A stretch of DNA of 64,000 nt from Nannocystis pusilla (GTDB lineage Bacteria > Myxococcota_A > Polyangia > Nannocystales > Nannocystaceae): assembly GCF_051105105.1 (NCBI RefSeq), contig NZ_CP185339.1; one strand, given 5' to 3'. A program made the position numbers and the translations under genes. The notes below the pieces were generated by a model. That model was not told the origin of the DNA, made no database searches, and saw only the letters and a program-made list of their open reading frames with translations. Positions 2,968 to 54,751 of the stretch are shown one piece after another; the first letter of the stretch is position 1, and every line of letters starts with the position of its first letter.

Positions 2968-4243
2968 TCACTCGGCCGCCCCGTCGACGCGGCCGCGGAT
3001 GATCGTGTCCTCGAGGATCTCGAGCGCGCGGTCGAGGTCGGCGCGCGTGTGCGCGGCCGTGATCGCGACGCGGAAGCGCAGCCCGTCCTCGGGCACCGAG
3101 GGGTAGTCGACCGGCGCGAGGAACAGCCCGCGACGGTGGAGCGTGCGCGTCAACTCATACAGCCGGCGGCGATCCGATCCGACCAGTAATTGGCACCACC
3201 TGACTCGAGCCGTGCCCGAGGTCGAGGCCGATCTGCTGCGCCTTCTCGCGGAAGTAGCGGGTGTTGGCCCACAGCGTCTCGCGCAGCGAGTTGTCGCGGG
3301 TCGCCACCTCGAGCGCCTTGCGGAGCCCGGCCACCACCGCCGGCGGCAGCGCGCAGCTGAAGCCGTAGGCGTTGATGTAGTAGCGCATGTACTGCAGCAG
3401 CGCGCGCGGCCCGACGGTGAAGCCGCCGCAGCCGGCGAACGCCTTGCTGAAGGTCGCGAACTGCAGGCCGATCGACTTCTCGGCCCCGTAGTGCTCGACC
3501 ACGCCGCGGCCGCTCGCGCCGTACACGAGGATCGAGTGGGCCTCGTCGATCAGCACGCCGACGCCGTGCTTCTCGGCCACCGGCAGCAGCTTCGGCAGAT
3601 CGGCCGTGTCGCCGTCCATCGAGTACACGCCCTCGACCACCACCAGCCGGCGCGCGCCCTCGCTGTCGGTCAGCGCCTGGTCGAGCGAGTCGGGGTCGTT
3701 GTGGTCGAAGAACACCAGCTTGGCGCGCGACAGCTTGGCGCCGTCGATCGAGCACAGGTGGGTCTTGGCGTCGAGGATGGCCACGTCGCCCTTGCGCAAC
3801 ACGCCGGCGAGCGTGCCCATTCCCCCGGCGAAGCCGCTGTTGAAGAGGATGCAGTCCTCCTGGCCGAGGAACGCCGCCAGCTCCTGCTCGAGCCCGCGGT
3901 GCAGATCCGACAACCCCGACAGCAGCGGCGATCCGCAGGCCCCGGTGCCGTAGGTGCGCAGGGCCTCCTGCGCCGCCTCGACGACCTCCGGGTGCGTCGC
4001 CAGCCCGAGGTAGTTGTACGAGCTGAGGTTGATGACGTCGCTGCGTTCGCCGGCGCGTTCGATCGCCATGCGCGGTGCGACGGCCCCCAACATGTGGGGC
4101 TCGTACATCGACATCGCCCAGGAGCCGGCCTCGGCCCACTGCACGAAGCCCTCGGGCGGACGGAGCGGATCGTCGCTGTCCGAGAAGTAGAAGTCGGCCA
4201 AACTGTGCTCGGCTTCGCGGCCCATCACGGAACTCCCCGGCAT
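2968..4243 (-). CDS. alpha-oxoamine synthase family PLP enzyme (serine palmitoyltransferase / KBL / BioF-like); apparent +1 frameshift near 3170-3180
   Basis: NLSSYNYLGL, the Spt/AONS signature, and FSKAFAGCGG, the PLP-lysine region, are present. The C-terminal 61 aa (RFRVAITAAHTRADLDRALEIL) sit in another frame. A single extra base, in the reverse-strand string ccaattActggtc, accounts for the shift. Confidence 0.75.
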
Positions 4244-4672
4244 GTCGGGGCCCGGGCGTAGTTACAGCGAAAGTATCGCGGCTGTCACGGAAATTTTGTT
4301 CCTCAGCGCATGCGGATCCACGTGCAGCGCGCGCTGTCGCGTCGTTGCACGTGTTGCAGATTGCGACGCGCTGGCCTTATCGGCGAACTATTTAAACCGG
4401 TGCATAAAATGATGCGCCTCGATACGGCCGCATGCGGCTGCATCGGCCGCTGGTAGTTAATCTCGAGTGCAACAATCTCCACGCCCTGCAGCGAACTCGA
4501 CGGCCGAGTCGCGCTCGCGCTCGCGTGTGGACTGCGAAATGCGTCGCACACTGGCTGTATGTCACGCATGCTGCGGACAGGAGACCGCGATCGAAGCGGC
4601 GCGTGGTGAAGCTCTCGAGCTCGTGTCATCGCCTTGACGTTCGACGCATGGCGGTGGGTAATCCCCCGCTTC

Positions 4673-5768
4673 GTGCGCACGAAGGTCCTCGTCACCGGCG
4701 CGAACGGCTTCATCGGCAGTCACCTCGTCGATCGTCTGCTCGCGGGCGGCGACGAGGTGCGGGCGATGGTCCGCGCCAGCGCCAACCTCGACAACCTCGC
4801 CGACGCGCTCGCGCGGACCGACGCGCGGCCCGAGCTCGTGCGCGCGTCGCTGGCCGACGTTCGACGCGATGGCGGCCGCGTTCGACGGCGTCGACATCGT
4901 CTATCACGTGGCCGGCCTGACCGCCGCGTTCACCCGCGACGAGTTCGCGCGGGCCAACGCGGCCGGCGTCGCCAACGTGCTCGCGGCGATCCGCCAGGCC
5001 CCGCGACGGCCGCGGCGGCTGGTCTACGTGTCGTCGCTGATGGCCGCCGGCCCGTCGCACCCCGAGGTCGCGCGCCGCGAGCACCACGCTCCGCGCGTCG
5101 GCTACACGCTCTACGGCGACAGCAAGCTCGACGGCGAGCGGCTGGTCTTCGCCGCCGCGCGCACCGGCGACGTCGAGGCCGTGATCGTGCGTCCGCCCGC
5201 GGTCTACGGCCCGCGCGACCTCGACATGTTGCAGATGATCCGCTCGGCCAAGTTCGGGTTGATCGCCCAGCCCGGCCTGCGCCCCGCGTGGATGTCCTTC
5301 ATCCACGCCTTCGACCTCGTCGAGGGCATCGCCCGCGCCGGCGCTCGCGGCCGCCCGATCCCTCGCGACGGCGAGCACGTGCTCGCCGATCAGGGCAGCC
5401 CCTTCGACCATGTCCCCGAGGACATCTCGCACCCCGCCGGCGCCGGCATCTACTACTTGACCGACGGCCAGCGCAGCACCGTCGTCGAGTTCGGCCGGGC
5501 CGCCGCCGCCGCGCTCGGCCGGCGGGCGCTCGCGCTGCCGATGCCGCAGGCCGCGGTGTGGACCGTCGCCGGCATCAACCACGCGATCGGCCGCCTGCGC
5601 GGCAAGGCCCCCGCGCTGACGCTCGACAAGGCCCGCGGCAGCATGGCGCCGGGCTGGTGGTGCGACGACAGCCGAGCCGTGCGCGAGCTCGAGTACGCCC
5701 CGCAGTGGCCGCTCGCGCGAGGGCTCGAGCACACCGTCGCGTGGGCCCGCTCCGTCGGTCGCCTGTGA
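4673..5768 (+). CDS. NAD-dependent epimerase/dehydratase (extended SDR); frame broken by a GACGTTC heptamer at 4856-4862
   Basis: VLVTGANGFIGSHLVDRL (Rossmann fold) and YGDSK (YxxxK catalytic motif) are present. After ...ASLAD the frame jumps to MAAAFDGVDIVYHVAG...; deleting the heptamer gives a continuous ...ASLADAMAAAFDGVD... The GTG start at 4673 is inferred. Confidence 0.75.
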
Positions 5769-6047
5769 CGCTTCGCGTCGACCTCGACGCGTGAAGGAGC
5801 GCCGGCGTCCGCGAACCGAGCCGCGACCGCGAGGACGAGGGTTGTTCCGAGGGCTCCGACGTGGATCGCGGCGTCGACCCGGACATCGGCTCCTGTCGCT
5901 CCGGAGGTTGCGATCTCGCGGTGATTCCGCAGTCGACTCCGGGGCGTCGCGAGCTGGACGACCGCACGTCACGCGCGGGCGCGTCCGGCGGGTCTTCGCG
6001 CCCTCGGGTTCGACCGCGCGGCCGACGTGGAGTAAGACCAGCGCGTC

Positions 6048-7172
6048 ATGCTCCGCCCTTCGGTCGCCGACATCGCCTTCGACGCCGCCCTCTTCGACTC
6101 TCTGCGCAGCGCCCTCGCCCGCGGCGAGCTCAGCCCCACGCGCGCCCGTCTGACCGCCCCGCCGCGGCCGCTCGGCGACGACGTCCTGCTCGACCTCGGC
6201 CGCGCCGACGCCCGGCCCGGCTGGCGCGCGCGCGGCCAGGATGCCCTCGGCGCGCGCAAGGTCGCCGCCCTGATCTTGAACGGCGGCATGGCCACGCGCT
6301 TCGGCGGCGTCGTCAAGGGCGTCGTCCCGGTCTTGCCCGATCGACCTGACCTCTCGTTCCTCGCCGTCAAGCTCGCCGGCGTCCGCGCGGCCGGTGTGCC
6401 GGCCGTCGTGATGCACAGCTTCGCCACCCGGGCTGCCTCCGGCGATCACCTCGCCACCATCGGCTGGTCCGGCGTCCCTGCCGACGACCGCCACGAATTC
6501 TTGCAGTCCTTGATGCCGCGCGTCGTGCCCGACGGCACCCCGCTCGTCAGCCTGCCCGGCGCCGACCTCTTGCCCGACACCACCGTCTACGCCGCACCCG
6601 GCCACGGCGACACCCTCCGGCGCGTGCGCGACAGCGGCGTCGTCGCCGAGCTGCGGCGCCGCGGCGTCGAGCACCTCCTCGTCTCCAACGTCGACAACCT
6701 CGGCGCCTCCCTCGATCCCACCGTCCTCGGCGCCCACCTCGACGCCGTCGACGGCGGCGCCGAGCTCAGCGTCGAGGTCGTCGCACGCGCCCCCGACGAC
6801 GCCGGCGGCTGCGTCGCCGAGGTCGACGGCCGCGCCACCATCATCGAGTCCTTCCGCCTGCCCCCCGGCGTCTCCCTGGCCCAGTATCCGCACTTCAACA
6901 CCAACACCCTGTGGATCTCCCTGGCCGCCCTCGAGCGCCCCTACCCGCTCACCTGGTTCCCCGTCGAGCGCTCCGTCGAGTGGCCCGGCCGCGACGACCA
7001 GCCCGTCATCCAGTTCGAACAGCTCATCGGCCAGATCACCGAGTTCGCCCGGACCGCCTGCCTGCGGGTCGACCGCGCCCGCTTCCTCCCGATCAAGACC
7101 CGCGACGACCTCGCCGCCGCCCGCCCCGCGATGACCGAGATCGTCCGCAGCGTCGGCCTCGATCCCGGCTGA
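6048..7172 (+). CDS. UTP--glucose-1-phosphate uridylyltransferase family protein (UDPGP, PF01704-like)
   Basis: LNGGMATRFGG...KG, the nucleotide-binding loop of UDP-sugar pyrophosphorylases. The 374-aa ORF is intact. Confidence 0.7.
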   Translation: MLRPSVADIAFDAALFDSLRSALARGELSPTRARLTAPPRPLGDDVLLDLGRADARPGWRARGQDALGARKVAALILNGGMATRFGGVVKGVVPVLPDRPDLSFLAVKLAGVRAAGVPAVVMHSFATRAASGDHLATIGWSGVPADDRHEFLQSLMPRVVPDGTPLVSLPGADLLPDTTVYAAPGHGDTLRRVRDSGVVAELRRRGVEHLLVSNVDNLGASLDPTVLGAHLDAVDGGAELSVEVVARAPDDAGGCVAEVDGRATIIESFRLPPGVSLAQYPHFNTNTLWISLAALERPYPLTWFPVERSVEWPGRDDQPVIQFEQLIGQITEFARTACLRVDRARFLPIKTRDDLAAARPAMTEIVRSVGLDPG

Positions 7173-7224
7173 CGCAGGCCCTCGCGCGCACCCGGCCTCA
7201 TCCTCGGCCCCCGCCCGCGCAGCG

Positions 7225-7307
7225 GCATGCCCGAAGGGACATGCCCGATTCGACATGTCCTTCTCGCCATGTCCATCACGACATGCCGCGAAGGACATGT
7301 CCAGTAG
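7225..7307. repeat. tandem array of six units of about 14 bp, each GACATGYCC plus a 4-7 nt spacer
   Basis: gcatgcccgaagg / gacatgcccgattc / gacatgtccttctcgc / catgtccatcac / gacatgccgcgaag / gacatgtccagtag. It lies in the intergenic region after the UDPGP gene, about 460 bp upstream of pgi. Confidence 0.8.
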
Positions 7308-7767
7308 TTTCCCCAGCCCTCTCGCGTCCCCACCGCCATTCGCCGCCCCGGAGCCGTCCGCCGCGCCGCCCGTCGCCGCGCACTGACGAGCGCCGGATGG
7401 GTCTCCAGGAGGTCCGAGCGATGGGCGGCCGGCCCCGGCCGTCCATCGCTCGGAGAGCCCTCCCCGCGCCGCGCCCTCCCGACAGCGGAGCCCACGACCG
7501 GCGCTCGGGCCACCCACGAGGCTAGCCGTGCAGCGGTCGGGGACGTGGGTCGGCGCCCATCCGCAGCGAGATGCGCCCGACGAAGGAGGGTGCATCCGCG
7601 AGGACTGGGCGCCGGCCCGCGTCCCCGACCGCCCGCGAGGCGGCCTCGGCAGTTCGCGAACCCCCGCGAAGCAAGCGCAACGAACCCCCGAAGCAAAGGC
7701 CGCCCGCCCGAGGCCTGGCGTCCCCAGGCTCCCCGCGAGCGCCGACGCTGCTATAAAGCGCGCCGAC

Positions 7768-9357: not shown

Positions 9358-9400
9358 CGCGCGAGACGTCGCGGCGAAGGGCGAGTATCCTGCCGCGCCC

Positions 9401-10816
9401 ATGGCCCCGGTCCCCGGACTCCGCGCGCTCGTCACCCTGGCCTGGCCGATCGTGCTCGCACGCTCGGCGCAGTCGGTGATCAGCTTCAGTGACGCGGCGA
9501 TGGTCGCCCCGCTCGGCGACGACGCGCTCGCGGCCGCGACCACGGGCGCCATGAACGCGCTGGGGATCCTCGTCCTGCCGATGGGCATCACGTTCATCGT
9601 CCAGAGCTACGCGGCCCAGCTCGCCGGTCGGGGCGACCTCGCCAGCGCGCGCCGCTACGCCTGGTACGGCCTGTGCCTGGCCGCCCTGGCGATGATCGCC
9701 ACCATCGCCGCCATCCCGGCGATAGGTCCGCTCCTGTCGCTCACCGGCCACGCGCCGGCGGTGCGCGAGACGATGGCCGAGTACATGGCGATCCGCATGC
9801 TCAGCACCGGCGTGGTCGTCGGCACCGAGGCGCTCGGCAACTGGTTCGCCGGCCTCGGCGACACCCAGGTGTCGATGCGCGCCAGCCTGGTCGCCATGGT
9901 CGTCAACATCGGCCTCAACTGGGTCCTGATCTACGGCAACCTCGGCGCCCCCGCGCTCGGCGTCCAGGGGGCCGCGTGGGCCAGCGTGCTGGCCAGCGTG
10001 GCCGGCTTCGCGGTGTGCTGCCACGCCTTCTGGCGCGCGCGCGACCGGCGGGCGATCGACCCGGCGGCGCTCGGGCACGTCGAGCACCCGGTACCTGACC
10101 TTCCGGACAGCTCGGACGGCCGCCTCAACCTGCGCGAGTTCTCGCGGATGATGCGGTTCGGCCTGCCGAACGGCCTCAACTGGTTCCTCGAGTTCGCGGC
10201 CTTCCTGATCTTCATCAACCTCGTGGTCGCCGAGCTCGGGACCGTCGCGGTCGCGGCGCTGATGGCCGTGGTGGCCGTCAACTCGGTCTCGTTCATGCCC
10301 GCCTTCGGCCTCGGCTCGGCCGGCGCGGTCCTGGTCGGCCAGGCGATCGGCGCCGGCCGCCACGACCACGTGCCGCGGATCGTGGTGCGCACCTTCTCGG
10401 TCGCCGCCGCCTGGCAGGGCCTGGTCGGGCTGCTCTACTTCACGATCCCGGTGCCGCTGATGACGATCTTCGCCCGCGACGAGGTCGAGACGTCCAGCGA
10501 GGTCGTGCACCTCGGCGCCCAGCTGCTGGCGATCAGCGCCGTGTGGCAGCTGCTCGACGCCTCCGTGATCACCTTCAGCGAGGCGCTGCGCGCCGCCGGC
10601 GACACCGCCTGGCCGCTGATCCTCCGGATCGCGCTCGCCTGGGTGATCTGGCTGCCCCTGGCCTGGCTGACCGTGTTCGTCTGGGACGGCGGCGCGACCG
10701 CGGCGATGTGGAGCATGTGCGTGTACATGGTGTTCCTCGCCCTGGCGATGGTGCTCCGCTTCCGCACCGGCGCCTGGCGCCGCATCGACATCACCGGCCG
10801 CGGCGCGACCGGCTGA
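9401..10816 (+). CDS. MATE family efflux transporter
   Basis: 471 aa with 12 predicted TM segments. It has a typical MATE N-terminus (LAWPIVLARSAQSVISFSDAAMVAPLG) and the internal two-fold repeat. Confidence 0.8.
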   Translation: MAPVPGLRALVTLAWPIVLARSAQSVISFSDAAMVAPLGDDALAAATTGAMNALGILVLPMGITFIVQSYAAQLAGRGDLASARRYAWYGLCLAALAMIATIAAIPAIGPLLSLTGHAPAVRETMAEYMAIRMLSTGVVVGTEALGNWFAGLGDTQVSMRASLVAMVVNIGLNWVLIYGNLGAPALGVQGAAWASVLASVAGFAVCCHAFWRARDRRAIDPAALGHVEHPVPDLPDSSDGRLNLREFSRMMRFGLPNGLNWFLEFAAFLIFINLVVAELGTVAVAALMAVVAVNSVSFMPAFGLGSAGAVLVGQAIGAGRHDHVPRIVVRTFSVAAAWQGLVGLLYFTIPVPLMTIFARDEVETSSEVVHLGAQLLAISAVWQLLDASVITFSEALRAAGDTAWPLILRIALAWVIWLPLAWLTVFVWDGGATAAMWSMCVYMVFLALAMVLRFRTGAWRRIDITGRGATG

Positions 10817-10823
10817 TCGAGCC

Positions 10824-10880
10824 AGCTCTCGAGGGCATGTTCTCGAGAGCATGTCCTCGAGGGCATGCTCTCCAGGACAT
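10824..10880. repeat. tandem array of four units of about 14 bp (GCATGYYC-TCGAGR-like), filling the convergent intergenic region
   Basis: gggcatgttctcgaga / gcatgtcctcgagg / gcatgctctccag / gacatgctcttcag. It lies between the MATE stop (10816) and the DUF1963 stop (10886). Confidence 0.8.
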
Positions 10881-10885
10881 GCTCT

Positions 10886-12304
10886 TCAGTGGCACTGCAG
10901 CGCCCCGCGCGCCTGCGACCAGTCGTGGACGGCCAGGGCGTCGGCGGGGATCCAGAAGTAGAAGAAGCCACCGTCCTGGTTGAGCAGCAGCTCGCCGTCC
11001 TCCTGGGCGTCGATCTGCAGCAGCAGCCGCCAGCGCAGCGCTCGCCGGCGGACCGCCAGCGCCTCGGGGCTGCCGTCGTCCCAGCCGTCCCAGCCCCCGG
11101 GGCGGGTGTCGATCTCAACGTCGAGGTACGGATCGCCCTGGATCGAGGCCGGGTGACCGAGCAGGCGGTGGTACGGCCGCTCGTAGTCGTCGAGCTCGCC
11201 GGACTCGGCGATGAAGCGCTCGAGCGGGTTGAACGGGACCAACTCGCCCCCCTCGCCCTGCTGACGCTGACGATGGACCTCGAGGATGCGCGCCTCGGGC
11301 AGCAGTGACTCGTAGAAGAAGTAGCTGTCGACGCACGGGTACAGCAGCTCGTCGGCGACGTCGATGTCGTGGGCGCTCAGCCGCTCGACCCCCGGAGGCA
11401 CGGGACGACGCGCGAGCACGTCGAGGTCGGTGAGGTGGAGCACCCGTACCGGATGGCCGCGCACGCCGTCGGGCGGGATCGGGGCGTAAAAGAAGCTCAG
11501 GAGGCCGTGCGCGGGCAGCTCGCGCGCGGCGGCGCGGCCCGCCAGCTCGGCGAGATCGAACTGGGCGACGAAGGTCAGCAAGACGCCGTCGACCTCGGGC
11601 CACGCGAGGTCGGGCGGCAAGTCGGGAGCACCGCCCAGGCGCGTCTGACCGGCGAGATGGACCTCCGCGTCGCCGCCGTCATCCTCGTCGACCTCGGCCT
11701 CGTCGCCTTCATCGCCGCCGTCATCCTCGTCAACCTCGGCGTCGTCCTCGTCGAGCTCTTCGCTGCGAGAGAGATGCAGGCGGATCGACGGGCGGGCCAT
11801 GGCTCGCACCTCGGCGACGTGCTCGGCGAGGCCGAGCGGCTCCAGGCGCTCGCGCCACTCGGCCTCGCGCGCGGCCTCGTCCATGGCCGCGAGGCGAACC
11901 GGATCGCGGAGCGCCGCGGCGAACTCGTCGGGCCGCTGCAGCGCTTCGTCGGCGAGCACTGCTCCGTAGACGAACAGGTCGCAGGGCATCATCGCGTCGG
12001 GTTCGCCGAAATGCGCGAGGATCGCGGGCATCGCCTGCAGGTGGCCCTCGACGTACGCCAACCAGCGCTCGGGGGCGTGCTTGCGATCGTCGCCGATGAA
12101 GACCTCCTGCTCACGGACATCGAGCGGGAGGACGCCGTCGACCGGATCGAAGGTCGTCAGCCGCAGGGCCATGAGGAAATAGCCCGCCTCGCTGCGCCAC
12201 ACCGGCGCGTCGTAGCCGGACGCGAACGCGAGCTCGACGGATCCTTCGCGCAGCGGGAGGTGACGGCGGAACAACTCGAGCAACCGGTCGGGATCGACGC
12301 TCAC
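10886..12304 (-). CDS. DUF1963 (YwqG-like) domain protein with an internal acidic D/E repeat
   Basis: The C-terminal ...LLLQIDAQEDGELLLNQDGGFFYFWI... is the DUF1963 signature. A low-complexity DEDDAEVDEDDGGDEGDEAEVDEDDGGDAEV linker sits mid-protein. Confidence 0.6.
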   Translation of the reverse strand: MSVDPDRLLELFRRHLPLREGSVELAFASGYDAPVWRSEAGYFLMALRLTTFDPVDGVLPLDVREQEVFIGDDRKHAPERWLAYVEGHLQAMPAILAHFGEPDAMMPCDLFVYGAVLADEALQRPDEFAAALRDPVRLAAMDEAAREAEWRERLEPLGLAEHVAEVRAMARPSIRLHLSRSEELDEDDAEVDEDDGGDEGDEAEVDEDDGGDAEVHLAGQTRLGGAPDLPPDLAWPEVDGVLLTFVAQFDLAELAGRAAARELPAHGLLSFFYAPIPPDGVRGHPVRVLHLTDLDVLARRPVPPGVERLSAHDIDVADELLYPCVDSYFFYESLLPEARILEVHRQRQQGEGGELVPFNPLERFIAESGELDDYERPYHRLLGHPASIQGDPYLDVEIDTRPGGWDGWDDGSPEALAVRRRALRWRLLLQIDAQEDGELLLNQDGGFFYFWIPADALAVHDWSQARGALQCH

Positions 12305-13415: not shown

Positions 13416-13590
13416 ACCCGCTGGCCGGGCCGCGCTACAAGCAGCTCACCGGATGTCCCGGGGGACCTGTCCCGAAGTTCAGACGTGCGTCACACCGCGT
13501 CTGCCGCGCCCGCAGCGGGCTCGACAGGAGCCGCCGAGACAGCGCGACTGCCGACGCGACGCGAAAGACTCGTGCGGGCCGTGGCCGGCG

Positions 13591-14060: not shown

Positions 14061-15030
14061 ATGCGTGAGACAGCAGAGACGACCGCCGAACCGTGGGCGA
14101 CGCTTTTGGTCCAGCTCCGCGGCCGGTCCGACGACGACGGCGAGGGCCTCGACCTCGGCGAGCTGACCGAGGCGTCGGAGCGGCTCGAGGCGCTGGCGAC
14201 GCTGATCGCCGAGGACCCGCGCGCCGCGGGCGTGGAGACGCGGGACACGTCGACCCTCGGCAGTCGGTGCGAGATCCCCGAGCTTACGATTTACACCACC
14301 CCCGACGGCCTCGAAGGCCTCATCGCCGAGGTCGAGCGGCTCGGCGCCGACCTGCACCTGCCGCTGCGGCTGACCCCGGCGGTGCGCACCGACGACGACT
14401 GGCGCGACACGTGGAAGCAGTTCTACGCGCCGCTGGTGTTCTCGGCCGCGACGACGACGCTGCTGGTGCGACCGAGCTGGATCGATCGCCGGCCCGGCGA
14501 CCCGGAGCTCGAGCTGGTCCTCGACCCCGGCCGCGCCTTCGGCACCGGCCAGCACGAGACCACGCGGCTGTGCCTGGAGCTGCTGGTCGCCCTCGCCGAG
14601 GCCGGCGCGCGCCCCGACCGCGTGCTCGACCTCGGCTGCGGCTCCGGCATCCTGGCCCTGGGGGCGGCGCGGCTGTTCCCGCAGGCCGCGGTGGTCGCCG
14701 CCGACAACGACCCCGACGCCGCCGACACCACCGCCGAGAACGCCGCCGCCAACGAGCTCGAGGACCGGCTCGAAGATCCGGGCCGCGACCGTCTTGGAAC
14801 TTTCGGACAGCTTCGATCTGATCCTCGCCAACATCCGCCCCGGCGTGTTGATCCCGATCGCCGGCGACCTCGCGCGCCGGCTCGCCCCCGGCGGCGCCGT
14901 CGTCCTCAGCGGCGTGCTCGGCGAGGAGGCCGAGGCCGTGCTCGCCGCCTACACCGCGGCCGGGCTGGCGCTGGCCGACCGCCGCGACCTCGCCGAGTGG
15001 TGCGCGCTGGTCCTGCGAGCGGCCGGATGA
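14061..15030 (+). CDS. prmA: ribosomal protein L11 methyltransferase; apparent single-base frameshift near 14770-14776
   Basis: FGTGQHETTRLCLELL and LDLGCGSGILALGAA are PrmA SAM-binding motifs. The C-terminus (ELSDSFDLILANI...) is in the +1 frame. The string ctcgaAgatccgg looks like ctcgagatccgg with one extra A. Confidence 0.8.
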
Positions 15031-37839: not shown

Positions 37840-39696
37840 TTACGACTCCACCGAGGTCGCGCGCAGGACCTCGTCGAGGGTGCTGATGCCGCAGACGACT
37901 TTGTGCGCGCCGTCGTCGCGGAGCGTGCGCAGGCCCTGAGCCAGCGCCGCCTGCTTGATCTGCATGGCGTCGGCGTTGCGGATCGCCAGGCGGCGGACCT
38001 CTTCGCTGACCATCAAGACCTCGTACACGCCGGTTCGCCCGGAGTAGCCGCTGCCCTGGCACTTGTCGCAGCCGACGGCCCGGTAGACGTGACCGCGCGG
38101 CGGCAGCCGCCGCGGCTCGGGCACCGACAGCGGCATGACCTCGCCGTTCTCGTCGCGCACCGGCACCTTCAGCGCCTGCTCGCCGGCGTAGAAGGCCGCG
38201 GGGATGATGCCGATCTCCTCGAGCTCGGTCGCCGACGGCCGGTACGGCTCGCAGCAGTGGACGCAGACGCGGCGGATCAGGCGCTGGGCCTGCAGCGCGA
38301 CCAGCGACGAGGCGACCAGGAACGGCTGCACGCCCATGTCGACGAGGCGCGTGATGCCGGTCGCGGCGTCGTTGGTGTGGATGGTGCTGAGCACCAAGTG
38401 ACCGGTGAGCGACGCCTGGATCGCGATCTCGGCGGTCTCGACGTTGCGGATCTCGCCGACCATGATCACGTCGGGGTCGTGGCGCAGGAAGGAGCGCAAG
38501 CCGGCCGCGAAGGTCAGGTTGATCTTGCTCTGCACCTGCACCTGCGAGATGCCGGCGAGCTGGTACTCGACCGGGTCCTCGACGGTGAGGATGTTGAGGT
38601 CCGGCGTGTTGATCTCGGTCAGCGCCGAGTACAGCGTGGTCGTCTTACCCGAACCGGTCGGGCCGGTGACGAGGAAGATGCCGTGCGGCCGGTTGATGAC
38701 GTTGCGGATCATCCGCAGGTGGTCGGCCGCGATGCCGATGTTGTCGAGCTTGAGCGCGACGGCGGACTTGTCGAGGAGACGGACGGTGACGCGCTCGCCG
38801 TGGGCCGTGGGCACGGTGGCGACGCGCATGTCGACCTCCTTGCCGGCGATCTTGCGGCGAATGCGGCCGTCCTGCGGCAGCCGCTTCTCGGCGATGTTGA
38901 GGCCCGCCATGATCTTGACGCGGGCGATGACGCTGGGGAGGTGGGCCTTGGGCGCCCGCTTGACCTCGTGCAGCACGCCGTCGACGCGGTTGCGGACGAT
39001 GATCTCCTTGTCACCCGGCTCGATGTGGATGTCGCTCGCCTTCTCCTTCGAGGCGTTGAAGATCAGGCTGTTGACGAAGCGGATGATCGGAGCGTCCTCG
39101 GCCGAGGCGTGCAGGATGTCCTCGTCCTCCTCCTCGTACTCCTCTTCCTTCTTCTCGAGGTCGACGTCCTTGGTGCGCCGCGCGTAGGTGCGGTTGATGA
39201 TCTCGAGGACGTTCGACTCCGGCATCAGCGTGACGTTGACGTTGGCGTCGTAGAGGGTGCCGAGGTCGTCGAGGTCGAGCAGCCGCAGCGGGTCGGCGGC
39301 GTAGACGCTGAGCACGCCGCGCTCGCGGTCGAGGCGGTACGGCAGGACCTTGTTGGCGCGCGCGTACTGGATCGGCAGCTGCTCGACCAGCTCGTCCTGG
39401 ATGTCGCTGATCTCGGTGTTCTCGCGGGCGGGCAGGCCGAACTGCCGCGCCAGCCCGCGCGCGAGGTCCCACTCGGAGCAGTGCTTGAGCCGCACCAGCG
39501 TCTCGCCGATCTTCTCGCCCTCGAGGTGCTGCGCCTGCAGGCCCTCGGCGAGCGCCTCGGCGGTGACGCAGCCCATCTCGATCAAGATCTCGCCGAGCGG
39601 GCGCGCGAGCGGACGGACCCCGAGCGGCGCGAAGGTCGGGCCGGCGTTGCGTTCTGCGGTGGTCTTGAGGGCGGTGTCCATGGGCATCTCAGGCAA
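37840..39696 (-). CDS. gspE: type II secretion system ATPase E (GspE)
   Basis: N-terminal GspE-N domain, Walker A VTGPTGSGKTTT, Asp box, Walker B and the C-terminal CxxC...CxxC zinc motif (CVHCC...CDKCQGSG). The 618-aa ORF is intact. Confidence 0.9.
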   Translation of the reverse strand: MPEMPMDTALKTTAERNAGPTFAPLGVRPLARPLGEILIEMGCVTAEALAEGLQAQHLEGEKIGETLVRLKHCSEWDLARGLARQFGLPARENTEISDIQDELVEQLPIQYARANKVLPYRLDRERGVLSVYAADPLRLLDLDDLGTLYDANVNVTLMPESNVLEIINRTYARRTKDVDLEKKEEEYEEEDEDILHASAEDAPIIRFVNSLIFNASKEKASDIHIEPGDKEIIVRNRVDGVLHEVKRAPKAHLPSVIARVKIMAGLNIAEKRLPQDGRIRRKIAGKEVDMRVATVPTAHGERVTVRLLDKSAVALKLDNIGIAADHLRMIRNVINRPHGIFLVTGPTGSGKTTTLYSALTEINTPDLNILTVEDPVEYQLAGISQVQVQSKINLTFAAGLRSFLRHDPDVIMVGEIRNVETAEIAIQASLTGHLVLSTIHTNDAATGITRLVDMGVQPFLVASSLVALQAQRLIRRVCVHCCEPYRPSATELEEIGIIPAAFYAGEQALKVPVRDENGEVMPLSVPEPRRLPPRGHVYRAVGCDKCQGSGYSGRTGVYEVLMVSEEVRRLAIRNADAMQIKQAALAQGLRTLRDDGAHKVVCGISTLDEVLRATSVES

Positions 39697-39706: not shown

Positions 39707-42122
39707 TCAGGGCTCGCGCCGGATCACCGGCGCCGGGTTCACCGTCGCGGGCGGCGCGCCGCCGCCCCCGCCCTCGCCGCCGACGTTGTCGTCGACCGCG
39801 GCCGAGCGCGGGCTGAGGCCGAGCTCGCCGGTGATGATCTCGCGCCGCATCTCCTCCTCGGCGCGGCGCAGCAGCAGCTCCTCCTGCTCCATGCGCCGGG
39901 CCTCCTTGTCGATCGCGGCCAAGATGCCGGACTTCTTGCGGTAGTTGATGTTGCTCTTGAGCTCGCGCTTGCGGAAGTTGGTCTCGCGCTCGATGAACTC
40001 GAGCCGCTCCTTGTCGCGCCGCTCGTGGATCCGGCGCACGTCGTCGGGGCTGTCGATGATGTGCGGGACCATGACGAGGAGGAGGTTGATCTTCTCCTTC
40101 TCCTTGACGCGGTTCTTGAAGAGCCAGCCGAGGAGCGGGATCGAGCCGAGGCCGGGGACCTGCTTGACGTTCTCGCTCTCGCGGTCACGGATGAGGCCGC
40201 CGAGCACGACCGGCTGACCGTCGCGGCCGACGATCTTGTCGAGCTTGATGCGCCGCTTGGTGGTGGTGACGCCGAGCACCGGGTCCTTCTCGGTGATGTC
40301 GCGGTCCTCGACCTCGACGTCCATCGTCACGTTGCGCTCGTCGTTGATGTAGGGCTTGACCTTGATGCGCAGGGTGACGTCCTGGCGCTCCACCGACTGC
40401 AGCGGGACCAGGCCGGTGCCACCGCCGCCACCTGCTCCGAAGGACAGGGCGCCCGGGGTCGGGACGTTGCGGCCGACCTCGATGGTGGCCTCCTGGTTGT
40501 CGGCCGCGTACATGTGCGGCTCGCTGACGACGTTGACGTCGCTGTTGCTCTGCAGCGCCTGGATGATGGCGCCGAAGGCCGGCACGTCGCGGCCGGTGCC
40601 GAGGATCGTGCCGGAGTTGAGCAGCGGGGGACCGATGAGGCCGAGGGTGAAGTTCTTCAGCGAGTCGGGCGAGAGCAGCAGCGAGTTGAGCGCGGGCGTC
40701 GGCGCGCTGCCCACCATGCCGATCGCGGTGCCGGCGGTGCCGCCGAGGCTCGGTGCTGATCGGGTAGCCGAAGTGGCCGCCCGCGCCGGCGTCGGTGCTG
40801 TGCTTGATGCTCACCTCGAGCATGTAGATCTCGATGTAGAGCTGGCGCCGCTCGCGGTCGAGCTTCTCGATCACCGGCTCCAAGTTCTTGTAGTCGGCCG
40901 CCGAGGCGATGATGACGAGCGAGCGCGTCGCCGGGTCGGGCGTGACCTTGACGTTGCCGGAGAACAGGTCGGCGCTGACCGGGTTGCCCGCGGGCGGCTT
41001 CTGCCCGCCCTGCTGCGAGGCCTGGGCCGCCTGCTTGGCGCCGGTGGCCAGCTGCGACAGCACCTGCGCGACCTCGGTGGCGTCGGCGTTCTTGAGCTTG
41101 TAGACGTGGATCCGGCCGCCGCCGCCGGGCAGCTTGACGTTGAGGCGCTCGATCAGCTTGCGGATGACGATGTAGTCGGACTCGGTGGTGACGATGATGA
41201 GGGTGCTGCTGCGCTCGTCGACGATGACGCGGCTGATCGCCGAGTCGGTCTGACCGCCGCCGCCGCCGCCGCCGGCCCGCCGACCCGCGCGACCGCCCGT
41301 GGCCCCGCCGCCGCCGCCACCGCCGCCGCCGCTGGCCTTGGCCTCGCCGAAGATGTCGCGGATGATCTGCGCGACCTCCTCGGCGTTGGCGTACTGCAGC
41401 TGGTAGAAGAAGATCTTCTCGCTGCCCATCGGCTGATCGAGCTCGGCGGCGAAGGTCTCGAGCCGCCGCACCATCGAGCCCTTGTCGGTGATGATGAGCA
41501 GGTTGCCGACCAGATCGACGCTGCCCGACTTGCTCTTGAGCTGGCCGAGGACGTTGCTGATCTCCTTGCTGTTGCCGTGCTTGACGCGCATCAGCTTGGT
41601 GACGAAGCGGTCGCTGTTGGGCGCGTTGGCGTCGTCGCCGTAGGTCGGCAGCGTGCGGTTCTTGGCGTCGGTGGTCTCGACGATCTTGAAGTAGCGACCC
41701 GAGGGCTCCACCGTCAGGCCCATCGTCTCGAGCGCGGCGTAGAAGGCCGCGTAGGCCTCCTCGGCCGTGACCGGCTCGGGCGACAAGATCGTCACCTTGC
41801 CCGACCGCACCTTGCGGTCCCAGATGAACTTCTGACACGTGATCGACATGATCCAGTTGACGAGGTCCTCGAGCTCGGTCTCCTTCGGCAACGTGATCGT
41901 GAACTTGGCCCCGCGCGGGGTCTTCTTGCACGTGTTGAACGGGATCGGGCCGCCGCCGGGCGTACCGCCGCCCTCGTCGCCGATCAGCTCGCCGCCACGG
42001 CTGCCGGTGGTCGGATCCTGCGCGGACGCGGAGACGGTGGTCGGGCCGAGCGTCAGAGCGGCCAGACCGAGAGAGACGAGGCCCAGTGCAGTCGGGCGGA
42101 CGGGGTTGCTACGCGCAATCAT
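39707..42122 (-). CDS. gspD: type II secretion system secretin D (GspD); apparent +1 frameshift near 40745-40760
   Basis: N0-N3 domains, a Gly-rich linker and the secretin domain. The secretin C-terminus (MVGSAPTPALNSLLLSPDS...) is in the +1 frame relative to ...HFGYPISTEP. No GACGTTC heptamer is present here. Confidence 0.85.
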
Positions 42123-44593: not shown

Positions 44594-45289
44594 GGGCGCT
44601 CGAGTCGAACCCGCGGTGTGCAATTCGGGGTCCTCGGTGAAAAGCGAATGATTCTAAGGCAAGTCCTGGAGCCAGAACGAGGGTGTCACGCGCAATTGTC
44701 AGGCCGTCCGAGGCGGGTTGCCAAAATGGCAATCGCGGCCCTCGCGCCCGCCTCCCGGCGCCTCAACCGCCACCCCCCTGCCCCGCCTTGGCGGGGCGGC
44801 GGCGAGGTCGGCCAGGGGGCGAGGCGGCGGCTGGCGCTTGGGACAGGTCGAGGAGCGGCAGCTGGAACGACGAGAGTGAGACGGATGCGCTGCGGGGGGC
44901 TGTCTCGAGGGACAGGTCGCGGTCGACGGCTCGGGTCGTCGGTGGGGCCGGTGATCGCTCGGCCGGAGGCGTACCTGTCTCGACGGACATGTGGGCGCTG
45001 GCGGGCGCTTCGCTCGGATTGCTGCGTGACGGCGCCGTTGCATCTGGTTCTTGGGACATGTCCGTCTCGGCGGGCCGGACTGGCCTCGCGGTCGCTGGCG
45101 CGCGCGCGGTCCTGGCTCGCGCGACCGTGCTCGCCCCGGGCTCGACCGGCGCCTCTGACTTCGACGGACCCGTCCCGGCGGACAGGCCATCGCCCGCGGC
45201 GCGCTTGGCGGCGGCCTTGCGCCCTTTCTTGCTCGGGCCTTCGCCTGTCTCTTCGGTCAGACTCTTCTGGGGCGGCCGGATCTTTCCTC

Positions 45290-46384
45290 GCAGACATGTC
45301 GGCGCCGGCCGCGAAGTCGCGGATGCTGCGGATCGCCACGCGCCGCTTTTCGAACACGAGGAAATAGGAGTGGTTCTTGCGCGCGTGGACCTGGGCCTTG
45401 AGCCGGCTGACCCCGGGGCTGTTGGGGCGCACGAGCACGAACAGGTCCTTGCAGTAGAGGCCGAGCGACTCGCCGCCCGTGATCAGCTCGACGTGGGTGA
45501 GGCGCTGCTTGTTGGCGCTGACCTCGTCCTGGCACTTGACGATCAGGACGCCGCCCGGCACGAGCACGCGCGCGGCCTCGCGGCAGGCCTTTTCGTAGAG
45601 GTCGACGACGGCGTCGTGCCACTTGGGCCCCGACTCGGTGACGGCGGCGGCCGAATAGGCGCGACGGAACGCGGCGTGGGTGCCGGAGCCGGCCATGTGA
45701 TCGACGCTGCGGCGGTACATGCCCTCCATGTACGGCGGGTCGAGGACGACGCAGTCGAGGCTCGCGTCGGCGTACGGCAAGGCGCGGCAGTCGACGCCGC
45801 TCGTCAGCTTCGCGCCGGCGCGCGCGGGGACGTTCCGGCTTGAGGGCGATGTCGCTGGCGAGCAGGGTGTAGAGCCCGTCAGGGACGCGGCGCCAAAACA
45901 CGCCGAGGCCGTAGGTGACGTTGGCGACGGTGCTGCCCTTCGGGACGTGTAGCTCGAGGATCTGGGCGAACAGCTCGGCGTTGTCGCCGACCCGCGCGGA
46001 CACGACGACGTTGGCGGTGGCCACCCCTCCCTGCACGCGTCGGGCAGGTCGCGACTCGGTGGGCGCGACCTCGGGGGTATCTGCTTTCTTCGGCGCGGCA
46101 GGACGCGACTTGGCGGGCGCGGCTCCCCGCGCGCTTGACCGCGCGGCTCGGCGTGGCTCGGCGTCCGCGGTCTCACGGGCCCGCATGCGCCGGGTGGTCG
46201 CAGGCTGCGGCTCGTCCGCAGGGGTCTCCCGGGTCCGCTCGCTGGCGGGGGTCGGACGGGGCCGCGAGGCGGCTCGACGCGTCTCGACGGGCGCGCCCGG
46301 CTCGTCCGTGGCGGCCTTGCGCGCCCGTCCGCGGCGGGCGGTCGCGGGTCGCGGCTCGGCGGCGGATCGGGAGCGGGCGGCCAT
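45290..46384 (-). CDS. SAM-dependent DNA methyltransferase (N6/N4 class, DPPY motif) with a basic Arg/Ala/Pro-rich N-terminal tail; frame broken by a GACGTTC heptamer at 45829-45835; C-terminal end uncertain
   Basis: VVLDPPY and [10 protein letters not shown] motifs. Upstream, ...[12 protein letters not shown] is in another frame; deleting the heptamer gives a continuous ...[17 protein letters not shown]... No in-frame stop occurs before 44686, so the 3' end was set after ...FLVFEK. Confidence 0.5.
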
Positions 46385-50870: not shown

Positions 50871-51191
50871 GGATCGACGCTAACACGGCGATCGCCCGCG
50901 AAAGGACAGGCGAATGCGCGCCCTGCGGCCCTTAGTCGCCGTTCTGCGGCCGTTTACGGGGTCCGCGGGCCCCACGTGGCGGACCTCAGGCGAAGTCGAA
51001 CATGGCTGAAAGGACAGGCGATGCGAATGGCAGGGCGCAGCTCGCCATGGCCGCTCAATGTCTCGAGAGACATGTCGCTATAGGCAGCTCAGATGGGCGC
51101 GCTCGCTCGCTGGCGGCAAGATCCAGTCCGGGGGGCGCGTCCGCGTCCGCGCCAGTTGCCGAGGCCGCCCCGCCGCGTGTACGATCGCGCG

Positions 51192-51756
51192 ATGATCTTG
51201 TCCCGCTCCTTAACAGCCTCCGCCGCGCGCTGGTCCGCGGCCCTGTTGTTCCTGCTCGCCCCCGCCGCGAGCCGCACCGCGCGCGCCGACGCCGTGTCCG
51301 AGCCGCCGAGCTGCCCCGACGGCTCGAGCCCCGACGGCTGCCACGGGGGCGAGTACTGCGAGCCGAACGAGTGCACCGACACCTGTCCTTCGGGCAAGGT
51401 GTGCAAGGAGGTCGAGCGCTGCGCGGGCACGGTCACGTGCGGCGGCGGGTGGACCAGCACCGGCGGTGACTTCTCGGTCGACAACATCCTCGGAGACTGC
51501 GGCGAGGGCGGTGCGTGCGCTGCGGGGATGTGCAAGTCGTTCAAGCTGTGCGTGTCGGACACGAGCGGCACGACGTTCGACGGGCGACGGCTCCGGCACC
51601 TCGCAGGGGTCCGAGTCCGACGGCGACAGCGACGGCACGCCGCCGAAGAAGGAGGGCTGCGAAGGTTGCCGGACGAGCGACGACGCCGCGCCGGCGCTGC
51701 TGGCCCTGGGCGTCCTCGGCCTGGCGATCGGCCGGCGCTCGCGGCGACGCGGCTGA
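51192..51756 (+). CDS. Cys-rich secreted protein with a MYXO-CTERM sorting tail; frame broken by a GACGTTC heptamer at 51572-51578
   Basis: A signal peptide and a Cys-rich region (CPDGSSPDGCHGGEYCEPNECTDTCPSGKVCKEVERCAG...). The C-terminus GCEGCRTSDDAAPALLALGVLGLAIGRRSRRRG is in the +1 frame. Deleting the heptamer gives a continuous ...SGTTGDGSGTSQGSESDGD... Confidence 0.65.
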
Positions 51757-52123
51757 CGGCGGCGCGACGCGAGCGGGCGAACGCTCCTCGGGCCCGACCC
51801 GAAACGCAGGGGCAGACCGGGCCGCGTGGTGACGCTGCGGCCGATCCCCGCCGCACAAGCCCCCTGCCCTGCCGCCTGCTCCGCGCGGCGGGTGCGGTTG
51901 CAGAGCGTCGATCGTTGCATACGCCCCGCCCTGCGCACGACCCGAAGCCGCGCCTGGCGCAGGCGGCCCGCCGAGAGCCGCGCGACGCGTGGGCCCTGCT
52001 GGCGCCGTCGTCGACGACCAGGCGACCTGTCCCTTACGCCAGGTGCCAGTCTCGGCGCGAAATCGATCATCACCGCTCGCATCGACAAGTGCGGGGCCAT
52101 TTGCGACTCTGCATGCTGCCGAC

Positions 52124-53176
52124 ATGCCGATCGACCAGCAGCTCGTCCCCACCTCGCGTCTCCGCGTCCACACCCGCATCGCCGGTCCCGTCGGGGCCCC
52201 GCTCGTCGTCCTCGTCCACGGCAACGCCTCGAGCGGCGGGTTCTTCGAGCCGTTGATGCTGGCGCTCTCCGATCGCTTCCGCGTGATCGCGCCCGACATG
52301 CGCGGCTTCGGCGACACCGAGCCGGCCCCGATCGACGCGACCCGCGGCGTGCGCGACTTCGCCGACGATCTGCACGCGCTGCTCGTCGCGCTCGACCTGT
52401 CCTCGCGGCCAGCCGTGTTCGTCGGCTGGTCGGCAGGCGGCGGTGTGATCATGCAGTACGCGATCGATCACGCCAGCCATGTCGCCGGGCTGGTGCTCGA
52501 GAACCCGATGTCGCCGTACGGCTTCGGCGGCACCCGCGACGCCCGCGGCACCGCGACGACCGCCGACTTCGCCGGCTCGGGCGGCGGCACGGCCAACCCC
52601 GAGTTCGCGCGCCTGATCAAGGCCGGCGACCGCGGCAGCGACAACCAGGTCTCGCCGCGCAACGTCATGAACACCTTCTACTTCAAGCCGCCGTTCCGGG
52701 TCGAGCCGGCCCTCGAGGATGCGTTCGTCGAGGCGGTGGTGAAGACCAAGATCGGCGACGACCACTACCCCGGCGACATGACTGCGTCGTCGAACTGGCC
52801 GGGAGTCGCGCCCGGCACGCGCGGGATGAACAACGCGATCTCGCCGAAGTACGTCGACCTGTCGCCGTTCGCCGGCATCGATCCGCGGCCGCCGGTGCTG
52901 TGGATCCGCGGGGCCGACGACCAGATCGTCAGCGACACGTCGGTGTTCGACTTCGGGTTCCTCGGCAAGCTGGGCGCGGTGCCGGGCTGGCCGGGCGACG
53001 AGGTCGCGCCGCCGCAGCCGATGGTCGGGCAGATGCGCGCGGTCCTCGACGCCTACGCCGGCAACGGCGGACGCTACGAGGAGGTGGTGTTCTCCGACTG
53101 CGGACACTCGCCGCACATCGAGCAGCACGAGCGCTTTCTTGCGGCGCTGCGAAATTTTGCCGAGTCGGTGTTCTAG
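52124..53176 (+). CDS. alpha/beta hydrolase fold protein
   Basis: HGNASSGGFFEP..., GWSAGG (nucleophile elbow) and ...DCGHSPH... The ATG at 52124 was chosen over the longer ORF in the track. Confidence 0.7.
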   Translation: MPIDQQLVPTSRLRVHTRIAGPVGAPLVVLVHGNASSGGFFEPLMLALSDRFRVIAPDMRGFGDTEPAPIDATRGVRDFADDLHALLVALDLSSRPAVFVGWSAGGGVIMQYAIDHASHVAGLVLENPMSPYGFGGTRDARGTATTADFAGSGGGTANPEFARLIKAGDRGSDNQVSPRNVMNTFYFKPPFRVEPALEDAFVEAVVKTKIGDDHYPGDMTASSNWPGVAPGTRGMNNAISPKYVDLSPFAGIDPRPPVLWIRGADDQIVSDTSVFDFGFLGKLGAVPGWPGDEVAPPQPMVGQMRAVLDAYAGNGGRYEEVVFSDCGHSPHIEQHERFLAALRNFAESVF

Positions 53177-53236
53177 CCGCCGTAGAGGGCTTCTGTGCGC
53201 TTTTGCGCCGGCGATGAATGGGCTAAATTGCTGCAC

Positions 53237-54751
53237 ATGCGAACACGCCGTCCCTGGGCCGCCCTCACCCTCCTCCTCGCCTGCACGCCGCAAGGTGGCG
53301 GCGACACCGACGCGACGACCGCGGCGGTGACCGACTCCACGCCGGGCACCGATTCGACCGACTCGAGCGAAGCGACGGACACGGCGACGACGGGGCCGAC
53401 GTTCGACCAGCGACGCGCCGCCGACGGGGACGACGACCGAGGCGCCGGCGACCACCTCGACGACGACCGAGGACCCGACCGCGCCGACGAGCACGACCAC
53501 CGAGACCGGCGGCGACGGGCTGCACGGGCTCGTCCTCGAGGACACGTTCGAGGACGGGATTCTCGAACGGCTGGGTCCGCGTCGAGCGGTGGTTCGACCC
53601 CGATCCGTTCTTCATTCAGGAGGATCGGTTCGACCTCGATCAGCGGGCCCACCAGACCGGGCAGCGGCTTCGAGTTCTTCGGCAACGACCCGGTGCCGCA
53701 CAGCGGGCGGTTCTTGCTGTACTACGCGCCCGGCTGGAACAACGGCGCCAAGTCGACGGTGCTGCTGGCGCACGGCGCCAACGACCAGGCCGACCGCGCG
53801 TGGGCCAACCCCGGCGAGAGCGGCGACTTCGGCTGCGGTCAGTCGACCTGTCCCGACATCGGCCTGATGCAGGAGCTGGCGGCCGCGGGCCACCGCGTGT
53901 TCGCGGTCTCGCACGCGCACAGCCAGGGCGACAACGTGTTCTGGGCCCTGCAGATCGCGTGGGCCATCGACATCATCCGCGAGCGCACCGGGGTCGACAA
54001 GGTCGACGTGATCGGGTGGAGCAAGGGCGTGATGTCGTCGCGCATGTACGCGTCGGGCCTCACCGGCGGTCACCTCGAGTACCGGGGCGACATCGACAAG
54101 CTGATCCTGATCGGCGGGCCGAACCTCGGCTTCGACTACATCTTCCGCTACGGGACGGCCCACAACGCCGGCGTCTACGCCGACTTCGGCGGCAAGATCC
54201 ACGCGCCCGGGCCGCACGACGAGCTGCTGATCTTCGGCCTGTGGGAGGACCGCTCGGAGTACGCGATCTACAAGTCCGCCGCCGGCGACAACTACCGCGG
54301 GCAGCTGCAGATGCTCGCGGCGTGGGACGACGTTTATCCGCTGACCGGCACGGCCAACAACGGGCTGATGCAGTGGATCGTCGGCGACAGCGAGTCGACC
54401 TACTACGGCGAGGGCCAGTACAAGGGCGTGTACGCCCGCGGCAAGGGCATCGACTACGCGATCCAGCAGGGCTCGGTGATCGCCGACATGATCGACGCCG
54501 GCATCCCCGCCTCGATCTCGACCCACCTGCTGTGCGGCGACCTGAACCTCAATGACAACAGCGTGCTGATCCCGGGCATCCCCAACGAGATCGCCGGGCC
54601 GAGCGACGGCGTGGTGTTCGTCGACAGCTGCGCGGCGACCGACGGGATCGGGACGCTCACCGACTCGGCTGTCCTGAAGGACATCAACCACCTCAAGCTG
54701 GGCTGGCACCCGACGGCGGCCGCCCAGATCCTGACGTGGCTCGGTCAGTGA
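53237..54751 (+). CDS. secreted lipase/esterase-like alpha/beta hydrolase lipoprotein; three compensating frameshifts (a heptamer at 53398-53404 and single bases near 53568 and 53660)
   Basis: Lipoprotein signal LLLACTPQGG and a T/S/D-rich linker, then GWSKG (nucleophile elbow). With the heptamer removed, the frame between 53404 and about 53660 reads SDAPPTGTTTEAPATTSTTTEDPTAPTSTTTETGGDGLHGLVLEDTFEDGILE, then GWVRVERWFDPDPFFIQEDRFDLDQ, instead of the R/D/H-rich nonsense of the called frame. The shifts total 9 nt, so the ORF track shows one open frame. Confidence 0.6.
   Translation: MRTRRPWAALTLLLACTPQGGGDTDATTAAVTDSTPGTDSTDSSEATDTATTGPTFDQRRAADGDDDRGAGDHLDDDRGPDRADEHDHRDRRRRAARARPRGHVRGRDSRTAGSASSGGSTPIRSSFRRIGSTSISGPTRPGSGFEFFGNDPVPHSGRFLLYYAPGWNNGAKSTVLLAHGANDQADRAWANPGESGDFGCGQSTCPDIGLMQELAAAGHRVFAVSHAHSQGDNVFWALQIAWAIDIIRERTGVDKVDVIGWSKGVMSSRMYASGLTGGHLEYRGDIDKLILIGGPNLGFDYIFRYGTAHNAGVYADFGGKIHAPGPHDELLIFGLWEDRSEYAIYKSAAGDNYRGQLQMLAAWDDVYPLTGTANNGLMQWIVGDSESTYYGEGQYKGVYARGKGIDYAIQQGSVIADMIDAGIPASISTHLLCGDLNLNDNSVLIPGIPNEIAGPSDGVVFVDSCAATDGIGTLTDSAVLKDINHLKLGWHPTAAAQILTWLGQ

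Follow-up and report, generated by a model that had tools for sequence, protein, structure and literature searches.

Frameshifting single-base insertions in a 64-kb stretch of a Nannocystis pusilla genome are most likely nanopore consensus errors

We analyzed a stretch of 64,000 nucleotides from Nannocystis pusilla (contig NZ_CP185339.1 of assembly GCF_051105105.1), referred to below as the window, in which conserved genes repeatedly change reading frame. A preliminary description of this DNA had listed five single-base +1 frameshifts, in the genes of a Spt-like alpha-oxoamine synthase (AOS), of PrmA, of the secretin GspD and, twice, of a lipase, and had kept them apart from other frameshifts found at a recurrent heptamer. 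We found that the five shifts and the eight "heptamer" lesions are very probably all of a kind, namely errors by which one base was inserted in a consensus obtained from nanopore reads only, the genes themselves being intact in all likelihood. The lesions are almost certainly an artefact of the assembly and not a biological feature.

Placement of the insertions

The window has a G+C content of 71%, and the G+C content of third codon positions (GC3) is near 1.0 in genes, so that a plot of GC3 by phase makes the reading frames legible. The phase of high GC3 dropped from approximately 1.0 at all five sites and the next phase rose to approximately 1.0, while in three-frame translation sensible protein carried on in the +1 frame. 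Seven-state segmentation of GC3 gave the same five switches and further switches on the same strand. Strand assignments of the GC3 hidden Markov model were unreliable in places (the gene at 51 kb, for example, is actually on the + strand), and picking the longest open reading frame (ORF) selected off-frame ORFs for the ketoacyl synthase and the epimerase. The lesions were placed by alignment of the window to syntenic or homologous loci of relatives, and repair consisted of the removal of one base per lesion.

Using the intact part of AOS, we performed a protein-seeded scan of GTDB genomes and obtained seven syntenic Nannocystis loci, with DNA identity of up to 96%. Further relatives were obtained by homology searches and by looking up contigs through exact protein matches. 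The comparators were RBIL2, BB15-2, NCELM, FL3 (PacBio HGAP), N. exedens DSM 71, Na p29 (L003, Oxford Nanopore Technologies (ONT) R9.4.1), another N. pusilla assembly (L014), a metagenome contig (L013) and MIELM (L016, GCA_049060185.1). Sequencing platforms were established for six of these nine. Twelve of the 13 sites were covered by DNA of relatives, one to seven per site, and in every covering relative the extra base was absent. For the thirteenth site, at 57564/57565, the lesion rests on the GC3 switch, three-frame translation and the continuity of the Pfam match. The five shifts of the preliminary description are genuinely in the sequence, as GC3 phase, three-frame translation and alignments to relatives agree on one extra base in each.

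The exact positions differed in part from those first proposed: three of the five shifts had been misplaced by approximately 10 nt or given the wrong inserted base. In the AOS gene (2968..4243, - strand) the +1 shift was confirmed, while the position 3176 and the extra A were not. The lesion spans 3186..3191 and comprises one inserted base, a G on the + strand and thus a C on the coding strand at 3186, with two substitutions. On the + strand the window has CCAGTAATTGG, compared with CCA-TGATCGG in six relatives, and the insertion turns ATG into ACTG on the coding strand. The two substitutions flanking the insertion are private to the window; both are synonymous transitions, G>A at 3188 and C>T at 3191, and they destroy a GATC. 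The extra A of prmA (gene 14061..15030, + strand), expected at about 14772, was found as described, as CTCGA[A]GATCC at 14773/14774; read from the opposite strand this is CT[T]CGAG. RBIL2 and MIELM have CTCG-AGATCC at this place, and the window has CTCGAAGATCC. The gspD gene (39707..42122, - strand) lies within the operon of the type II secretion system (T2SS). Its shift, previously given as 40745-40760, was located at 40751-40753, as one extra base in ACC(G)AGC of the coding strand. This lesion falls in a variable loop and was therefore placed at the protein level, with the join ...YPIST|SLGG...; the extra base may be either a duplication of C to CC or an inserted G.

The esterase/lipase gene (53237..54751, + strand) carries three lesions. 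The first, at 53402..53403, had been taken for an insertion of seven bases and proved to be a single extra T, GACGT[T]CGA, when compared with L012 and L013. For the second and the third the +1 shifts stood, and the inserted bases had to be corrected. Instead of an extra C at 53568 there is an extra T at 53560/53561 (GGGAT[T]CTCG, where L012 and L013 have GGGA-TC), and instead of an extra G in GGG at 53660 there is an extra T at 53669/53670 (GGCT[T]CGAG). At the latter site L012 and L013 read CGGC-TCGAG and the window reads CGGCTTCGAG. The gene appears as a single open ORF because the three +1 shifts sum to 3 nt. The nonsense stretch in its middle was thus correctly noticed (approximately 89 codons), and the sum of 9 nt was not correct.

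The remaining lesions have one context in common. In the ketoacyl synthase gene, which is on the - strand, an extra T occurs twice, at 518..519 and 1089..1090, each time as GACGT[T]CGA on the + strand and each time absent in all seven relatives. The same extra T in GACGT[T]CGA was found at 4640..4641, between genes and approximately 30 nt upstream of the start of the gene of a NAD-dependent epimerase; at 4860..4861 within that gene (+ strand); and at 51576..51577 in the gene of a Cys-rich secreted protein (+ strand). Relatives lack the first, all relatives lack the second and L013 lacks the third. A DNA methyltransferase-like gene on the - strand has GACGT[T]CCG on the + strand at 45833..45834, which is absent in L014. 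Finally, the acyl-CoA synthetase gene (56327..57851, - strand) has GACGT[T]CGA on the + strand at 57564..57565. The previously given total of 13 lesions was correct, and their distribution over 11 genes was not, as 12 lesions lie in nine genes and one is intergenic.

At the sites described as heptamers the window has GACGTTCGA and all relatives have GACGTCGA, and these lesions are therefore single T insertions. We had also considered an insertion of seven nucleotides (GACGTTC), which seemed to restore the frame of the acyl-CoA synthetase; it was dropped since relatives carry GACGTCGA. The absence of a heptamer did not hold as a line dividing the five shifts from the others, because the heptamer sites too are single T insertions, and prmA and the third lipase lesion share with them the T[T]CGA context.

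The window was also scanned systematically for indels by comparison with ten loci of relatives. Among the frameshifting indels in coding sequences, these +1 insertions were the only ones confined to the window and at odds with every relative covering the site. No window-private frameshifting deletions were found in coding sequences in the same scan, and in the stretch without DNA of relatives (57-62 kb) a scan gave no further sharp frame switches. The sole window-private deletion of one nucleotide was seen at 13445-13447, where the window is one base shorter than all six relatives. It is intergenic, upstream of a MeaB-like gene, and may be natural.

Sequence context and source of the insertions

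All 13 lesions are insertions, an outcome with P = 1e-4 under equal odds of insertion and deletion, and in 12 of them an adjacent base is duplicated. The context T[T]CGA was observed in nine of the 13, for prmA on the opposite strand, and GACGT[T]C in eight. The frame switches at approximately 513, 1084, 4860, 51576, 53400 and 57565 all carry CGACGTTCGA/ACGTTCGA. There are five occurrences of CGACGTTCGA in the window versus 0.5 expected, and nine of ACGTTCGA versus approximately two, with all copies on the + strand irrespective of gene orientation. Seven of the 13 lesions are at one position of one 8-mer, for which the chance probability is about 3e-22.

The ratio of converted to intact GACGTCGA was 8:12 in the window, compared with 2:127 in 211 kb of relatives (Fisher p = 1e-6). 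Conversion depended on orientation, affecting seven of 13 GACGTCGA sites oriented along the + strand and none of six along the - strand (p = 0.044). All GACGTTCGA sites are on the + strand, for + and - genes alike, and one is intergenic; the GACGTTCGA at 39208 is natural, being common to the window and L014. Most of the 759 TCGA and 534 GATC sites of the window are unaffected. One motif rule for all the lesions was not found, as TCGA covers nine and GACGTC covers eight. The homopolymer or simple-repeat context of a phase-variable contingency locus was likewise absent from the lesions, in which a single base becomes two in mixed sequence. We also looked at the asymmetry between ACGTT and AACGT (65 versus 12) as a possible hidden excess of lesions. 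It is natural and comes from Asn-Val codons in genes of the minus strand, and over the first 14 kb ACGTT exceeds its number in relatives by just the four known lesions. Extrapolation of the density of 0.2 lesions per kb gives approximately 2,500 per genome.

The lesions of the window recur in NCBI proteins of an N. pusilla contig of 12,213,092 bp. The lipase has as its best match (P0001) a protein recorded at NCBI as "esterase/lipase family protein [Nannocystis pusilla]", with the same out-of-frame stretch, rich in R, D and H, as in the window. This form, WP_434415783.1, is annotated as a normal protein in NCBI, RefSeq and UniRef, with approximately 89 residues out of frame. A second match (P0365) is a C-terminal PrmA fragment of 61 aa, present as WP_434428165.1 in the same three databases, which is identical to the piece after the lesion in the window, including the window-specific EAEAVL. 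A contig of this length is described in PMC12766979 (Table 1) as Nannocystis sp. UBH4, in one contig of 12,213,092 bp, with 71.7% GC and 94.7% average nucleotide identity to N. pusilla. According to the same paper all isolates, UBH4 and MIELM included, were sequenced on ONT R10.4.1 and processed with Guppy, Flye and Medaka, with no short reads. The source assembly was thus built from error-prone long reads without orthogonal polishing.

Two other nanopore assemblies could be compared with UBH4. In Na p29 and MIELM, densely spaced single-base deletions in C/G homopolymers break other genes. The epimerase is found there in three pieces, the DUF1963 gene in two, and the PGI gene is fused to that of MatE; the published number of coding sequences (CDS) of MIELM, 14,925, is approximately 30% above that of relatives. 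Thus, in three nanopore assemblies with near-identical gene sets, different genes are broken and each assembly has a separate error signature. Homopolymer indels of long-read assemblies (MIELM, Na p29; PMC11649196) resemble the lesions of the window in being single-base, in splitting or fusing genes, in inflating CDS counts and in being absent from the assemblies of other relatives. They differ in being deletions in C/G runs of at least four bases, whereas the window has insertions in mixed sequence and no homopolymer deletions in CDS.

Origin of the insertions

Of the causes named in the preliminary description, low consensus quality is strongly supported by the unpolished, ONT-only source, by the dependence of the lesions on motif and strand and by their absence in every covering relative, whatever its platform. 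General noisiness of the assembly was not seen in the spectrum of window-private substitutions. These look like ordinary evolution (14 of 22 at codon position 3), and therefore the assembly is not noisy throughout. In the process we propose, a duplicated base would enter the consensus at certain contexts, chiefly as T before CGA and above all in GACG-T-CGA, and the errors would arise at basecalling or polishing. Their probable trigger is a modification of DNA, such as methylation, that is specific to the strain, lies at or overlaps TCGA/GACGTC and would distort the nanopore signal; a modification of this kind in UBH4 is probably the most economical cause. MIELM, obtained with the same pipeline, keeps all eight of its GACGTCGA sites and has none of these insertions, which are therefore triggered by something particular to the strain or to the run.

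In the literature, modification-induced nanopore errors are described as specific to one strand, as still present in assemblies made from R10.4.1 data only, and as favouring C>T and G>A, which are also the types of the two substitutions flanking the AOS insertion. Like the lesions of the window, the errors addressed by Hammerhead (PMC11610603; PMC12392509) are linked to motifs, biased to one strand, specific to strains and able to survive Medaka on R10.4.1 data. The published errors are mainly substitutions, whereas here 13 of 13 lesions contain an insertion of one nucleotide, mostly T to TT before CGA. It has further been reported that polishing with Medaka can add errors, that recognised classes of error include methylation and high local GC, and that indels at a difference of only 0.03% can yield hundreds of spurious CDS. 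The recurrent insertion in GACGT[T]CGA or T[T]CGA may point to a methylation motif of UBH4 that has yet to be characterised. It may also indicate that R10.4.1, Guppy and Medaka can fail by inserting bases, which would be of modest technical novelty.

Several observations weigh against consensus errors caused by modification. The errors were not seen directly in reads, the basis being sequence comparison and public records, and modification-linked ONT errors known from publications are, as said, mainly not insertions. Of the GACGTCGA sites in + orientation only about half carry the extra base, as against none of the six in - orientation, and the proposed cause accounts neither for this bias nor for the partial penetrance. 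Three of the 13 lesions (AOS, gspD and the second of the lipase) match neither motif. The substitutions next to the AOS insertion, being both synonymous, are also compatible with real polymorphisms. As a genome-wide check of the lesion load we compared CDS densities: UBH4 has 922 CDS/Mb, barely above the 882-921 of PacBio Nannocystis genomes, and approximately 2,500 gene-splitting errors should raise the density more. The lesion density of the window may therefore exceed the average of the genome.

The insertions could also come from a context artefact of Guppy, Flye or Medaka that is independent of modification, in which an extra T is miscalled at GACGTCGA-like k-mers in any genome. The tight binding of the lesions to their context agrees with this, as do the known introduction of errors by polishers and the recognised effect of high local GC. 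Such an artefact should be seen in MIELM, for which the same pipeline was published; in 21 kb of that assembly eight GACGTCGA are intact and none is converted, and MIELM reads the unmutated sequence at the three lesion sites of the window that it covers. Kit, basecaller model and coverage may differ between MIELM and UBH4 (alternatives are listed in PMC12766979). We consider a generic artefact possible, though rather unlikely.

Real and very recent frameshifts in UBH4, in a decaying locus or in a mutator lineage gathering pseudogenes, are very improbable. The lesions do stand in the deposited sequence, the substitutions at the AOS site are synonymous, and decaying genomes likewise accumulate many frameshifted conserved genes per unit length. 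On the other hand, seven identical events in one 8-mer would be needed, and all 13 lesions are insertions, whereas decay normally favours deletions. Pseudogenes of decaying genomes also differ from the genes of the window, where secondary decay and deletions are missing and the recurrence of the motif is extreme, in a free-living myxobacterium with a genome of 12 Mb. There are no extra stop codons and no relaxed constraint downstream of any lesion, and the repaired proteins are 94-99% identical to orthologues. The extrapolated number of approximately 2,500 would be carried by a free-living predator, and the assembly is ONT-only. The suggestion of a decaying locus, made in the preliminary description, was therefore rejected.

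We give very little credit to the possibility that the extra bases are real in the DNA of UBH4 through a strain-specific activity at GACGT|C or T|CGA, for example self-restriction with error-prone end repair giving orientation-biased +1 changes at high frequency, with hundreds of frameshifted genes tolerated or compensated. Its narrower form seems scarcely credible. A nuclease or restriction enzyme would nick or cut GACGT^C, where AatII cleaves, and a T would then be added by error-prone end-filling or by non-homologous end joining. The extra T is indeed exactly at the GACGT|C junction in eight lesions, and the effect is specific to UBH4. Five lesions are outside GACGTC, however, and the argument from fitness is the same as for real mutations of any kind. 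A palindromic target should be struck both ways, yet all events give GACGTTC on the + strand. To our knowledge, there is no mechanism for a precise +1 at a cut with a 3' overhang.

Programmed recoding, by which +1 ribosomal frameshifting or transcriptional slippage would restore the proteins, has a negligible probability. All the shifts are +1 and inside otherwise conserved genes, and, as in programmed +1 frameshifting (e.g. prfB, CUU UGA C), both frames encode conserved protein. The motif keeps its orientation on the DNA strand whatever the direction of the gene, however, and thus the mRNAs have no common signal: the sense strand has GACGTTCGA in + genes and TCGAACGTC in - genes. One site is intergenic, no orthologue has any shift, and the lipase, with three lesions in one gene, would need three events.

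Mutations engineered or planted in the window or the strain can practically be dismissed. Their density and uniform +1 direction look designed, but the same lesions are already in proteins deposited independently in NCBI, RefSeq and UniRef from the source contig, and therefore nothing was engineered into the window; besides, the insertions are at pre-existing natural GACGTCGA sites, of which only about half are affected.

Repaired genes, public data and neighbouring features

Pfam matches became continuous through every lesion inside a matched domain (PF00109, PF02801, PF00155, PF01370, PF06325 and PF00501). In the repaired ketoacyl synthase PF02801 was matched over positions 1-118 of 119 and PF00109 over 2-250 of 252, each unbroken. 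Before its lesion (query residues 1-351), AOS shows 97-99% identity to orthologues, and after repair PF00155 is matched without interruption over positions 2-360 of 361. Single stretches were likewise obtained for the repaired epimerase (PF01370, positions 1-227 of 240) and the repaired acyl-CoA synthetase (PF00501, positions 3-384 of 384). As written in the window prmA is a split gene, and its PF06325 catalytic-domain protein of about 320 aa is not in one piece. The repaired PrmA has 322 aa, with 98% identity over 100% of the length to an ortholog also of 322 aa (P0241) and with PF06325 matched over positions 70-294 of 296.

The gspD gene as written is split at its lesion. After removal of one base the product has 804 aa and aligns end to end with orthologues, which have about 790 aa and all carry PF21305 (N0), PF03958 (Secretin_N) and PF00263 (Secretin). 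It is 94% identical to P0121, it aligns across the join with seven orthologues, and the secretin domain downstream is fully conserved. In the lipase approximately 89 middle codons are out of frame, and the repaired protein matches orthologues through that stretch. The first lesion falls where orthologues have TGPTSTGDAP, whereas P0001 from NCBI has TGPTFDQRRAADGDDD... there; at the second lesion orthologues read EDGI[K/A]NGWVRVERW, and at the third QTGQRLEFFGNDP. The repaired DNA methyltransferase-like protein matches PF01555 (N6_N4_Mtase), and the repaired ORF of the Cys-rich protein has 187 aa, equal in length to the gene of L013. The organism itself most likely has intact genes for the T2SS secretin, for PrmA, for the sphingolipid-type AOS and for the lipase. 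GspD and the T2SS are most likely functional, and the earlier suggestion of a non-functional T2SS does not follow.

These results are a warning about data quality, as a single-contig GenBank genome carries approximately 0.2 frameshifting insertions per kb in the window. Corrupted proteins from the UBH4 assembly are now in RefSeq and UniRef, and PrmA is left only as a fragment of 61 aa. Analyses of pan-genomes, biosynthetic gene clusters and pseudogenes that use UBH4 will be distorted, and likewise those that use MIELM and Na p29, with a different type of error.

Some features of the window are described here for completeness. The methyltransferase-like gene (approximately 45283-46100, - strand; PF01555) has a DPPY motif and itself carries a GACGT[T]C insertion. 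It is one candidate source of the putative strain-specific modification. The Cys-rich secreted protein (approximately 51186-51751, + strand) has a MYXO-CTERM-like sorting signal, made up of a GCEGC motif at the C terminus, a hydrophobic helix and a tail rich in Arg; it gave no Pfam match.

The first 5,768 nucleotides of the window contain a cluster of a ketoacyl synthase, a small ORF, a FabD-like acyltransferase, the Spt-like AOS and the divergent NAD-dependent epimerase. All seven Nannocystis loci show synteny for this conserved cluster (1-5768), which probably encodes a sphingolipid-type lipid pathway. The start of the epimerase in the RBIL2 annotation corresponds to position ~4674 of the window. 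Upstream of the gene, at 4633-4665, there is a promoter-like sequence, TTGACG ... GGTAAT. The T inserted at 4640/4641 is just past the -35-like hexamer and would add one base to the promoter-like spacer.

Between two convergent genes, MatE-like (end at 10816) and DUF1963-like (end at 10886), we observed a tandem array of a 14-nt unit, GCTCTCGAGGGCAT, in 4.4 copies (10825-10885). Its copy number varies by units of 14 nt among Nannocystis relatives.

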